Positions 17,408 to 57,730 of a stretch of DNA of 64,000 nucleotides are shown here, in pieces. The notes beneath the pieces were generated by a model. It had not been told where the DNA came from and ran no database searches. It saw only the letters and a program-made list of their open reading frames with translations. The translations under genes and the position numbers were made by a program. The stretch comes from Octopus sinensis (lineage: Eukaryota), in contig NC_043000.1 of assembly GCF_006345805.1 (NCBI RefSeq), positions 114,514,001-114,578,000 on the forward strand, given 5' to 3'. Position 1 is the stretch's first letter, and each line of letters starts with the position of its first letter.

Positions 17408-17906
17408 AATAGTGTAATAAATAAAATATATGCATACATACAACATATATGTACGTACCTACATCTACATGTATGTATACATGCATATATAAATATATAT
17501 ACGTGTGTACAGGACACCACAAATATACGTAGAACTCAACGAAAACGTAAAAACAGCATGGAACGGACTATTTTTTTAACAACGAAAAAACAGAGTACAA
17601 GACAAATACACAAGGAAAAATCCCCTTCATTAGCTGTCCCTAGTTCAACTCCAGCGTGTTTCGAAGGGACAGCTGATGAAGGGGATTTTTCCTTGTGTAG
17701 TTGTCTTGTACTCAGTTTTTTCGTTGTTAAAAAAATGGTCCGTTCCATGCTGTTTTTACGTTTTCGTTTCTCGTTGAGTTCTACGTATATTTGTGGTGTC
17801 CTGTACACACGTATATATATTTATATATGCATGTATATATACATGTAGATGTAGGTACGTACATATATGTTTGTATGTATGCATATATTTTATTTATTAC
17901 ACTATT
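17408..17906. repeat. Long inverted repeat P1 (arms 17408-17641 and 17665-17906) of an H2-related repeat
   Basis: Arms are near-perfect reverse complements with a 23-nt spacer; CTGATGA at the start of the right arm. Confidence 0.9.
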
Positions 17907-18199
17907 GTATGACTGGGCGCCTTCGCTCGATTCGATTCGATTCGTTTGGTTTGGTTTGGTTTCTTCTTCTCTAAGCTGGTTTATATATTATATATATATA
18001 TATATATTTATATAAATACAAAATGGGACAAGAACGCAAAACTTCAAATAGACGATACAAAAACACGGACGAGTCATTCGAAGCGTCTAATCTTCAGTCA
18101 AGACCGGATCATCCTCGCAATATATATATATTATATATATAATATATTATATTATATTATATATATATATATATATATATATTATATATAATATATATA

Positions 18200-19352
18200 T
18201 TGTGGCATAGCTGGAAAACTTGGAGTGTGGTTACATGACTTCCTGAAAGATAGGAGTCAGGCAGTAGTGGTTAATGGAGCCACCTCTATGAACACACAAA
18301 TAGTGAGCGGTGTTCCACAGGGCACTGTCTTGGGATCACTGCTTTCTATAGTGGCCCTCTCAGGTATGCCCTCAAATGCCCGGATAGCCACTCTGGCCAG
18401 CTATGCAGACGATACGAAAGTCTCGTAGAAAATACAGAACCCCAGCGATGTTGCACACCTGCAGCAGGAGTTGGACTCAATCTACAGATGGGCTGAGGAT
18501 AATAATATGCAGTTTAATGCTGAAAAATTCCAGGTCTTGCGCTACCAGCATCCAAAACTGAATATTAAACTTACAGGATACACCGGTCCACAGGGAATTT
18601 CAATCCCAGAGCCTAAGTCTGTGAGGGACCTGCGTATCGACATGAGTGATGATACCTCTTTCCAAGTGCACATTATCAGGATAGCGACAAAGTGCAGACA
18701 ACTGGCTGGGTGGATCCTAAGAACATTCAGAACCAGAGATAAGGAAACCATGATGGTCCTCTGGCGGACATTCGTCCTCAGCCGCCTGGATTACTGCTCA
18801 CAGCTATGGTCAACCACCAGTGTAAAATTAACAGCGGACCTTGAAGCAATCCAGAGAAGATTCACAAAGAAGATTGTCTCTTTGCAACAGCTCAGCTACT
18901 GGAAAAGTTTGAAACAGCTAAGACTCTACTCCCTGAAGAGAAGACGGGAGAGGTATGCAGTAATATATGTCTGGAAGATCCTGGAAGGAATTGTGTTAAA
19001 TTTTGGCATTGTAAACTACACCAATGCTAGAACGGGACGACACTGCATAGTGTCAAAGATCCCAGCAATGCCATCACGCTTCAGGACCAGCTTCTGCAAC
19101 AGCCTGGTTTTCTCCCAAAGAGTCTGAGGAACATGCACGAAGTAGATGTAGCGGTTTTTAAATCAAAGCTGGACATCTTCCTGTCAAGAGTCCCAGATGA
19201 ACCTACCTCACGGCAAGAGGTGCAAATGAGAGTAGCTACGTCAAACTCCATTCTTCACCAAGTGCCACATATTAGAGGAGGTTCTTCGTAATAACAGTGT
19301 AGCACAAAACGGTGGTGCATCAGCATGGCCGCAGCTCTGAGCTGAAACTAGA
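18200..19352 (+). mobile_element. 5'-truncated CR1-group LINE (RT C-terminus and 3' tail)
   Basis: SGVPQGTVLG, YADDTK, LSRLDYCSQLWS and LRLYSLKRRRERY, with stops/frameshift; ends gctgaaactagAAAA. Confidence 0.9.
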
Positions 19353-19377
19353 AAAAAAAAAATATATATATGTATGT

Positions 19378-19580
19378 ATGTGACCTCGTCTGTACCACTA
19401 GCGATTTTTTTCCCTCTGTCTTCCCTTCTCGGGATCTTTCCTTCTCCTATGTTTCCGACGAAGAGCTCCGCTCGAAACGTCAAACCCTCCTTCTTCCCTT
19501 CTTTCCTGAGCGTCAAATAATACTTTATTTGTTCCACGTCCTTGCGTTGTTGTCTTTTTGTTTTCTTGTTTGGATTAACT
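19378..19580 (+). mobile_element. Family H1 copy with HHR variant at 19451-19485
   Basis: guuu CCGACGA a GAGCuccGCUC GAAA cg UC aaac; perfect stem I but a U4C core change. Confidence 0.75.
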
Positions 19581-20002
19581 GTGGCTTCTATTCTTTACAT
19601 TATCGAGCGATTACTGTTTCAATCTCATTCTGAGATTTAATTATGCTTACTGTTCGTTTTTCGACATCAGTGGCAGACGCCACTAGAAAAACTTATATAT
19701 ATTTGCAAAGCAGCCTTCACTTTCATCGCGACCTGGTGGTTACCGCCCGTTGACGAGGGACAACATCCCGAAACTAGTTCGAGCGTATCACTCAGGCTTG
19801 CCAGGAAGGGAGGGCCTCCCTTTGCAAATACTCCAAGGACACTGATATTGTGTCTAAGCAGCCCTAGAGACGACGATCTCTTGGGGCTATAAAGCTACAG
19901 TAACACCCCCTCCCCTATGTGGTTAGCCATGATAAGATGGCTTCTATACTTTACATTATCGAGCGATTACTGTTCAATCTCATTCTGAGATTTAATTATG
20001 CT
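19581..20002 (+). mobile_element. Terminally redundant 356-nt non-coding unit containing an HHR (retrozyme/pLTR-like)
   Basis: ~65-bp direct repeat at 19582-19647 and 19938-20002, with the HHR at 19744-19785. Confidence 0.7.
19744..19785 (+). ncRNA. Type I hammerhead motif
   Basis: cgcccg UUGACGA GGGA caaca UCCC GAAA cuag UU cgagcg; palindromic stem III ACUAGU; U3-G8 wobble. Confidence 0.7.
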
Positions 20003-55235: not shown

Positions 55236-55259
55236 TAAAATTAACTCAATAATTGCCCA

Positions 55260-55508
55260 CGGACATATGGTGTAGTGGTTAAGAGCGCGGACTACTAACC
55301 CCAAGACTCCGAATTCGATTCCAGTGACACGAATAATAATAATAATAATAATGATATTAATAATAATAATAATAATAATAATAATAATGAGAACCCAGGT
55401 TCGAAATTTCCCCAAGACACGTTGTGTTAACAACAAACAAGATGAGAACGAATATCCGTCAAATATAAATAATGTACATAACTCATTATCTCTTAGATAT
55501 AGAACTGA
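55260..55508 (+). mobile_element. tRNA-derived SINE-like element with internal (AAT)n
   Basis: tggtgtagtggttaagagcg A box and aattcgattcc B box. Confidence 0.55.
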
Positions 55509-56754
55509 ACACACCTTCACTCACTCAGTCTCTTTCTCCCTCACAAGCACACACTCTCGTCCTCTCTTTCTCCTCTCTTTCAAATTCCTGCTCGCCTTCC
55601 AAAGAGGAGTAAAAAAAGAAAAAAAATTTCGGAAATTAACGAACAAAACCATGTAAATAACACCTATACTGCTAGAAATAAGAGCTGAAGGACTTTGTTG
55701 TTGCTATCAACGCATCGTCAGAAAGATCGGCACAGATCGCCAACATCTGGAACAACCAAGCTGCGAGCGTATATGTTTACTTCCTAAAAATTGATGGATG
55801 ATTTAGCGAATCGCTAATGTGTATACAAATAATTAAATGAGGCAGCTAATTAGCGAAGTTTAGCCAAAATGGAAAACAATAAATGCCATTAAAAATGACT
55901 GAGGGTGTAAGAACATTTACACTGCTAGCAAAATATATATATAAGAAACCTTCTCACTGAGTTACATTTTTGTGAACCTTAAAGTAGAAAATAATCAAAT
56001 TCCTATATCGACAACATCATGACCTGAAGTTAATACTCCTGAATAAATTACAAACTTTTACATGTTTAACTGAATTCTGAACAATAACCTCTGTCTTCCC
56101 CAAACAAGCAGTTTAAATCACTTACATTCTTTTGCGAACCATAAAAAGCAATCCCACGACCTGGAGCTGACACATCTAAATACACACATCTGATTACGAG
56201 GTTTTATACACATGACTGAACTCTGAAGAATAACACAACTCCAACTTAAAATGATAAAACCTTCTATAATACCTTTTTATCAGAACACAACCTAATTATG
56301 ATTCAACATATCTCATACGTTGAAAAACAAAACTTCACAGAGACCATATAAAGTCAAGATGGAATCAAATCAATTAGGGAAGAACTTCGAAGTCACTGTT
56401 ACTACTATTTTTGTGAAAGTGTAATAAATACGTAATCTACAAAAGCGTGTTGAGTAACCGTCCAGTTTAACACAAAATTGTAATCAAATTGACTTAAAAA
56501 CGAACATTAATATATATCTATATATATATAAATGTGTGTGTGTAAGATTATTTTTTGACGGCCTAGCTTAAGGTAGCAAACACGTGACCTAAGACCTTTC
56601 CGTGGTCACTTAAAGGTCAGTCCTCTGTTTAGGATTTGACCTGCAACCTAGCATAGTCTATATAACAGGGGCCATTTCCTTTCTCGCTCTCTTTTGTGTC
56701 AGCCATGACCAGGAGCAACACTTCACTTTACCCTTCAGTCACCATTCTTTCATT

Positions 56755-57155
56755 CTTATGCTTGTTTCAGTCATTTGACTGCAGCCATGCTGGAGCACTA
56801 CCTTGAAAGGATTTTAGTCGAAAAAATCGACCCCAGGGATTTTTTAAAGCCTAGTACTAATTCTAGCGATTTCTTTGCGAAACTACTAAGTTATGGGAAT
56901 CCAAATACACCATCAATGGTTGTCAAGCAGTGATGAGGGGACAAACACAGAAGCAAAGACAACACACACACACGCACACACAAATATTATATATTCGACG
57001 GGCTTCTTTTAGTTTTCGTCTACCAAATCCACTCACAAGGTTTTGGTCGGCCCAAGGCTATAGTACGAGACGTCTACTCATGTTGCCACGTAGCGGGACT
57101 GAACCCAGAACATGTTGTTGGGAAGTAAGCTTCTTACGAAACATCCACAGCTATG
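56755..57155 (-). mobile_element. SINE family A, older copy
   Basis: Reverse complement of the A consensus. Confidence 0.8.
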
Positions 57156-57392
57156 CCTACCGATCTGTGTGTCTATCTATCTATCTATCTATCTATTATC
57201 TATCTATCTATCTATCTATCTATCTATTTATCTATCTATCTCTCTCTCTCTCTCTCTCTCTCTCTCTCTCTTTCTCTCTCTTTCTCTTTCTCTCCCTCTC
57301 TCTCTCTGTATATATATATATATATATATATATATATATTATATATATATATATATATATATATATATATATATATATATATATATATAAAG

Positions 57393-57730
57393 AAGCAACA
57401 AGAGATCCAGAGGTAATGCAGCACGATCGTTTCATGCAACTCCATTTAATTGAACAATGCAATCATTACATCAATTTAAAATGCAGAGTAATCATCAGCT
57501 GCACAAATGCATAGAATTTAATTAAACTAGAACAGATGGACACATTAGTATAATTATACCGACCATGCTGTCTAGTATAGAAGTTACTGTTCTAATTTAA
57601 TTAATTTCTACGTCTTTGTGCAGCTGAAGAATCCTCTGCATTTTAAATTGATGCAATGATTGTATTGTTCAATTAAAAGGAATTGCATAAAACGATCGTA
57701 CTGCATTACCTCTGGATATTCTTGTTGCTT
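57393..57730. repeat. Long inverted repeat P4 (arms 57393-57535 and 57587-57730), each arm with a long-stem-II HHR motif
   Basis: Consensus ugcag CUGAnGA ... GAAA cgaucg UA cugca; motifs at 57417-57503 (-) and 57619-57705 (+). Confidence 0.85.

Follow-up and report, generated by a model that had tools for sequence, protein, structure and literature searches.

Introduction

Insertions of Penelope-like elements (PLEs) form units in which an inverted, 5′-truncated copy lies adjacent to its neighbor and a tail is found at one end (PMC8557442, PMC3846280). PMC8557442 describes the way in which PLEs form such inverted, one-tailed insertions as undefined. The present analysis concerns four fold-backs, P1–P4, in a 64,000-nucleotide stretch of the Octopus sinensis genome (NCBI RefSeq assembly GCF_006345805.1, contig NC_043000.1, positions 114,514,001–114,578,000, forward strand; hereafter, the window). 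P1–P4 are PLE insertions and represent a published kind of structure. Judging from their sequences, they are probably (rough probability, 0.75) short two-armed insertions of four PLE families, formed by reverse transcription that was primed at the two ends of a single target break and began at different fixed points.

In twin priming of L1, two primers at one target break give rise to a sense part and an inverted part. The octopus insertions differ from this scheme in that both start points are fixed and in that the arms often overlap, producing palindromes. The Pen2a_Av unit resembles P1–P4 in its inverted 5′-truncated neighbor, one-end tail, (TA)n targets, junctions with microhomology and a TATA box plus initiator (Inr) pair in the pseudo-long terminal repeats (pLTRs) (PMC3846280, PMC8557442). 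The tails, however, measure 60–175 nt in the octopus and 30–40 nt in Pen2a_Av. Moreover, the octopus tail is not optional, being present exactly once in 108 of 110 pairs, and self-priming is contradicted here by non-nested arms. PAc, a Poseidon element of Anolis, cuts and extends both strands in vitro, accepts uncut RNA as a template and starts reverse transcription at two sites that bound the tail (PMC11167929). These two sites resemble two fixed outer points, A and B, of the octopus copies, but the accessible sections of PMC11167929 report no strand difference in the start site and do not state that each insertion uses one of each.

Opposite-strand hammerhead pairs 100–700 bp apart have also been described (PMC4209133). 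The hairpins themselves are an ordinary structure of an already published kind, and the parts worth following are the pairing of A with B and a rearranged hammerhead motif with the block order S-G-C in the P1 family. A near-absolute A+B rule together with non-nested arms offers a two-ended, testable model in place of self-priming, and this model fits the PAc biochemistry. Our literature search for twin priming in PLEs returned only a human-transposon review and PMC3846280, as far as their accessible sections go.

Four two-armed insertions in the window

Self-BLAST of the window identified four non-microsatellite fold-backs and no others, at the same positions as in a first-pass annotation made from the sequence alone. 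The arms are 137–238 bp long, and the spacers measure 1–51 nt (P1, 238 bp, 97% identity and 23 nt; P2, 137 bp, 96% and 1 nt; P3, 155 bp, 97% and 51 nt; P4, 147 bp, 89% and 51 nt). As had been described, the ribozyme-sense strands point outward in all four. The fold-backs are also unrelated, as claimed, in that each derives from a different high-copy PLE family, with 1,482–2,465 first-look candidates per family. The term "perfect hairpins" does not hold for arms of 89–97% identity, and the ribozyme box or cut site is mutated in P1, P3 and P4.

A family-specific tail of 60–160 nt is present on one arm only in each of the four insertions. Copies of these families stop at two fixed outer points, the distal point A at the tail end and the proximal point B. 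The arms are listed below, with signed positions relative to the nUGAnnA box of the hammerhead core.

P1 untailed (left) arm, 17408–17667, minus strand: outer end at point B; reaches to 34 nt 5′ of the box, takes in the GAAA block and stops 9 nt 3′ of the predicted cut of the family (L091); G5 of the box mutated.
P1 tailed (right) arm, 17665–17982, plus strand: outer end at point A; begins 8 nt 5′ of the CUGAUGA box at 17673–17679; tail, 17907–17982.
P2 untailed (left) arm, 33343–33479, minus strand: U3-A8 minimal type I hammerhead motif; box end, 33470.
P2 tailed (right) arm, 33480–33675, plus strand: box, 33490–33496; predicted cut after 33520; tail, 33617–33675.
P3 tailed (left) arm, 49794–50110, minus strand: tail, 49794–49955; G5 of the box mutated; inner end at −29 (L001).
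P3 untailed (right) arm, 50110–50316, plus strand: start at −81, which is the A of TCATT, an Inr-like sequence; type I hammerhead motif intact; box, 50191–50197; predicted cut after 50263.
P4 untailed (left) arm, 57393–57560, minus strand: inner end at −59; type I hammerhead motif with a long stem II and the cut triplet mutated to GUG (L061).
P4 tailed (right) arm, 57588–57826, plus strand: inner end at −36; box, 57624–57630; G12>A; tail, 57731–57826.

The P1 arms meet at a 3-nt microhomology, AGG. In P4, 27 additional letters separate the two arms, and stem II of the hammerhead motif at 57624–57700 comprises ~55 nt.

Longer copies of two of the families contain coding partners. In the P2 family, an open reading frame (ORF) with a C-terminal GIY-YIG domain (Pfam E=2.7e-8) is common to L052 and L035, and a reverse transcriptase (RT) was not seen. 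In the P3 family, L442 encodes RT motifs followed by a GIY-YIG-like end, with 46% and 29% identity to P0001, and has an asparagine-rich stretch ahead of the endonuclease, as in Adineta Pen2a–Pen4. The Pfam scores of the P3 family are weak. L442 (870–7160) itself spans several kilobases as a two-armed insertion of the P3 family, and both of its arms contain RT and endonuclease frames. Several features of endonuclease-containing (EN+) PLEs were found, namely RT/GIY-YIG frames (P2 and P3), an inverted 5′-truncated copy, a tail at one end and a hammerhead motif. Any target-site duplications are masked by the microsatellites that flank the insertions.

Pairing of the outer ends

The combination of outer ends was determined in 320 family loci, which were score-ranked or pattern-drawn and freed of duplicates, and 139 head-to-head pairs were found. 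When 29 pairs with a non-standard outer end were set aside, 108 of the 110 pairs with two standard outer ends combined A with B, two were A+A and none was B+B (p=5e-30 against 50%). The earlier proposal that the fold-backs are PLE insertions produced through a recurrent integration route is supported.

In P1, P3 and P4, the untailed (B) arm extends further 5′ and the tailed (A) arm further 3′, and therefore neither arm was copied from the other. Among 34 unselected (pattern-drawn) two-armed insertions of the P3 family, 15 have arms that do not overlap, and five of these 15 terminate no more than 16 nt from B, as expected from a collision on one template. Partner arms are 92–100% alike, compared with means of 87–93% to other copies (11 pairs). 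The partner arm was the best match in only four of these 11 pairs, and another copy was closer in the other seven, a pattern compatible with either one or two RNA molecules as templates. Short shared or added letters are found at most junctions. In the P2-family copies L033 and L041, the junctions (~1465–1500 in element orientation) are filled by short repeats of the arm end, similar to the templated insertions of end-joining repair.

In the mechanism that we propose, both ends of one target break would prime reverse transcription, one at A and the other at B, on one RNA or on sister RNAs from one source. The two truncated cDNAs would be joined head to head, presumably by end-joining repair, and a palindrome would arise only if the A-primed cDNA passes B. 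The ribozyme box is located only 107–236 nt inside B, and long palindromes consequently tend to include it. The pattern in the first-pass annotation, an inversion point just 5′ of a ribozyme core, is mostly explained by this length selection plus family-specific RNA ends.

Rearranged hammerhead motif of the P1 family

Intact P1-family copies contain the hammerhead blocks in a rearranged order. The 3′ strand of stem III, the cut site, the 3′ strand of stem I, a 3-nt linker, the 3′ strand of stem II and GAAA come first and are followed by the 5′ strand of stem III, a linker, the 5′ strand of stem I, CUGAUGA and the 5′ strand of stem II. In terms of sequence, the blocks follow the non-circular S-G-C order described in PMC10085705. 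Two complete motifs are located in the window:

S-G-C hammerhead motif of a P1 sister family, 3521–3584, minus strand: complete; predicted cut after 3577.
Second S-G-C hammerhead motif, 2667–2730, minus strand: complete; located 854 nt downstream of the first motif, within a partial tandem; predicted cut after 2723.

The surrounding region (2470–3930, minus strand) is a partial tandem of a non-coding S-G-C family with an 854-nt unit, retrozyme-like with a permuted ribozyme. P1 likewise occurs as non-coding 747-nt tandems (L382), and the tandem units of the non-coding P1 group range from 747 to 854 nt. By eye, none of the 45 longest of 502 candidate frames was recognized as an ORF of the S-G-C families.

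The motif was evaluated with a pattern that fixes the G and C blocks. This G-C pattern has 4,603 exact matches in the 2.7-Gb genome searched, compared with none for a reversed control. Block S is left free by the pattern. It occurred in 56 of the 93 matches that were analyzed, all of them on contig C1, compared with 0.57 with shuffled upstream sequence, and in none of 118 G-C matches of metagenome contigs, a negative control. The core elements UH, GAAA and CUGAnGA are present in S-G-C order. The distance from the cut to stem II is 8–10 nt in 56/56 copies, which leaves a linker of 2–4 nt after six stem I positions. Two-sided changes were observed in 4/5 pairs of stem I, 3/5 of stem III and 5/6 of a stem III extension (25 variants, hand-picked as passing the pairing test, so that the percentage paired is inflated), and 0/500 shuffles matched this result; covariation was far lower in slid controls of the same variants. 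Stem II is set by the search pattern, and three of its four pairs are invariant.

The predicted P1 ribozyme shares with the type-SGC hammerheads (PMC10085705) the block order, a ~3-nt linker between stems I and II, the core nucleotides and the covariation of stems I and III. It differs in its setting, which is animal genomic retroelement repeats instead of hairpin-ribozyme-associated metatranscriptome contigs, and in one additional letter ahead of a G-U-rich stem II. SGC-3 requires an interaction helix that connects the other sides of stems I and II (PMC10085705). In the P1 motif, such a helix was not found (best helix, 3.9 pairs versus 4.1 in shuffled sequences; n=46), stem III is extended instead, and an alternative outer helix shows no covariation. 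For these reasons, the motif is filed as a variant, not a member, of the type-SGC class.

PMC10085705 searched all of RefSeq, and its supplement file, as far as accessible, contained no match for octopus, Metazoa or Eukaryota. It was the only paper with the term "Type-SGC" in our literature search, which found no report of S-G-C hammerheads in animal retroelements within its coverage (subscription journals lay outside it). The motif, if true, would extend the range of non-circularly permuted ribozymes beyond environmental RNAs to thousands of copies in an animal genome.

The same motif terminates copies similar to Naiad PLEs. In the supplement of PMC8557442, the 3′ end printed for Naiad_Obim has the S-G-C order of the P1 group. 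It has 327 matching places in the genome, and 11 of 20 Naiad-like copies passed the block-S test. The ORF diagnostic of Naiads (N-terminal GIY-YIG, CxC linker and C-terminal RT) was not found within 1.5 kb of 20 old copies. In the accessible sections of PMC8557442, no canonical hammerhead is reported for Naiads, an "HHR_half_core" is flagged and the complete fold is not recognized; the P1 group differs from Naiads in consisting of non-coding tandems. A true S-G-C motif would explain the reports of Naiads without hammerheads.

Inner ends and predicted cut sites

In P1–P4, the duplicated parts have their inner ends ~8, 12, 29 and 36 nt 5′ of the nUGAnnA box, respectively, within the 40 nt that had been noted earlier. 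The location upstream of the ribozyme does not apply to P1: with its GAAA block placed 5′ of the CUGAUGA box, and its cleavage block still further 5′, the junction falls inside the ribozyme. These distances had suggested that ribozyme cleavage defines an RNA end, and hence the inversion point, in all four families. In P2–P4, however, 43–113 nt separate the junction from the predicted cut downstream of it, and the arms thus span an uncut site.

Arm ends were mapped with several references. In the P3 family, 89 distinct arms from 70 loci were drawn by a 21-letter motif near B from the first 100 of 2,041 matches listed. Their ends are distributed across the ribozyme at 0.005–0.006 per nt. The expected concentration of inversion points at the cleavage site was not observed, with 11 ends at the cut (0.0067 versus ~0.005 per nt, p=0.19). 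A sharp peak of 5′ ends was found instead at −83 to −71 (14/89 arms, 0.032 per nt, p=4e-7). Its edge coincides with TCATT, the A of which is 28 nt from TATAA in L344 and L353, and the peak likely represents a transcription start at a TATA/Inr-like site. Adineta pLTRs contain a comparable TATA+Inr pair (PMC3846280). The inner ends of 19 unselected P3-family palindromes fall within 40 nt 5′ of the box in two cases, inside or 3′ of the ribozyme in 12 and further 5′ in five.

The other families show hot spots of their own. In the P2 family, 17 of 25 arms stop at −7 to −17, in a score-ranked set whose query began there. Among 29 tail-selected P4 arms, six end at +77 to +99 (0.011 per nt versus 0.005–0.008 in the four bins 5′ of this interval), a weak excess. 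The hot spots of the inner ends differ between families and likely correspond to 5′ ends of RNAs.

Of the 93 S-G-C copies, 23 have their ends in the 10 nt 5′ of the pattern, a stretch bounded by the predicted cut and stem II. Two of these ends are internal deletions; the remaining 21 compare with 11 ends across the following 55 nt (p ~3e-8, with exposures estimated by hand). A downstream motif yielded a second set of 74 P1-subfamily arms (70 loci; 258 matches in total). In this set, the density of ends is 0.0058 per nt on the 3′ side of the cut and 0.0024 on its 5′ side (p=0.014), with a peak 8–19 nt 3′ of the predicted cut and not at the cut. The longer arm of P1 ends in this zone. The distributions are no more than suggestive of RNA cutting by the S-G-C motif that would set copy ends in the P1 group. 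None of 20 Naiad-like S-G-C copies ends at the predicted cut or just 3′ of it (by inspection), and the S-G-C linker has TA-like microhomology to the target. In the S-G-C fold-backs L093, L094 and L237, complementary strands of stem I or II form the junction microhomology (−43/−6 in L093 and L094, which were chosen by a query containing such a stem-strand junction).

Cleavage as the determinant of the inversion point in all four families is therefore unlikely, although it draws on the 8–36-nt spacing in 4/4 cases, the 21 S-G-C ends and the six P4 arms. As a general rule, it is refuted by the P3 end distribution, including the 2/19 palindromes that fit, and by the P2–P4 arms that span the cut. 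The idea of a fixed end near the ribozyme is borne out in part, and unexpectedly, by a real 5′ edge of the P2 family at −7 to −17 and by the enrichment of S-G-C ends just 3′ of the predicted cut.

The type I motifs of P2 and P3 were recognized by a script, and that of P4 by eye. The listed matches of an Rfam scan of the window (150 of 204) include microsatellite-driven miRNA matches and no hammerhead, and minimum-energy folds of the P2–P4 motifs did not yield a monomeric hammerhead. Dimers are suggested for P2–P4 because the stem III loops are palindromic (PMC4209133).

A wider proposal, to which we give somewhat less than an even chance, has two parts. Each PLE insertion would be obligately primed from both ends, one per start site, and animal Naiad-type elements and thousands of non-coding relatives would carry an active S-G-C hammerhead with its own scaffold. 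Unlike the neighboring minimal type I hammerheads, this ribozyme would cut germ-line template RNA as a monomer and set the 5′ ends of new copies.

Alternative explanations

The first-pass annotation had offered snap-back or twin priming as the integration route, and of the two, twin priming is close to the best model. Under snap-back (self-priming), a single cDNA, or else an antisense template, would fold back and copy itself. This route was put forward in PMC3846280, and it would account for the short microhomology at many junctions and for the P2 arms, which begin at the same point. It conflicts with the non-nested arms of three of the four window cases, the 15 of 34 P3 pairs that do not overlap and the fixation of the outer ends as A and B. 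Self-priming is accordingly quite improbable as the general route and might apply, at most, to a minority of cases with symmetric arms.

Two independent insertions, or a later recombination, could also juxtapose opposite copies, as the families are numerous (1,100–2,500 candidates per search) and have (TA)n targets in common. Such events should produce A+A and B+B pairs and combinations of unrelated subfamilies, which were not seen, making this origin very unlikely. An assembly or library artefact from fold-back chimeric reads can practically be dismissed: although short-read contigs bridge no hairpin center and the window is richer in hairpins than a genome sample, the arms differ by 3–11%, have family-fixed ends and carry a one-sided tail, and the P2 flank junctions recur in independent runs with 0–1 differences.

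Two-ended priming from A and B is the reading that we prefer, and the following points weigh against it. The 29 pairs with non-standard outer ends were excluded from the 139, and the P1–P4 search sets consist of top-scoring matches, not of a random draw. The second arm is rare in the P1 family, with nine A+B pairs in 100 loci. For PAc, the two strands showed no difference in start site in vitro, which does not reproduce a strict A+B rule (PMC11167929), and PMC3846280 favors self-priming on an antisense template. The P3 RT matches RVT_1 with an E value of only 0.099, and no ORF was found in the P1 and P4 families within the loci examined. Microhomology of an AT-rich or palindromic kind could underlie the hot spots, including the pile-up of A arms at B. 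Finally, another copy was closer than the partner arm in 7/11 pairs.

Fold-back density and other repeats

Under a strict rule, the 64-kb window contains four fold-backs, as does a 399.9-kb sample of 40 evenly spread 10-kb pieces (0.64 expected in the window). The window is thus approximately six times richer than the sample average, which agrees with the high density noted earlier, but the P value of 0.004 is naive in that the window had been picked for fold-backs. A loose rule gave 30 fold-backs in the same sample.

Independent short-read contigs were available from four runs of three studies. The left flank-arm junction of P2 is present in all four runs, and a piece spanning its right tail-flank junction was found in three of the four, among the pieces listed. 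None of the listed pieces was seen to bridge a hairpin center, that of P1 included, and absent cover proves nothing. No empty sites were found, the P2 junctions being present in all runs examined.

The window includes an assembly gap of 100 N at 23944–24043. Elsewhere, L293 (402–2181) and L587 (1–883) contain long fold-backs that look like assembly errors and are unlike P1–P4: their arms are ragged and rich in indels, and they include large TA runs. At 29080–38580 and 43500–52060 of the window, many inverted repeat pairs of 150–290 nt from other repeat families are scattered kilobases apart.

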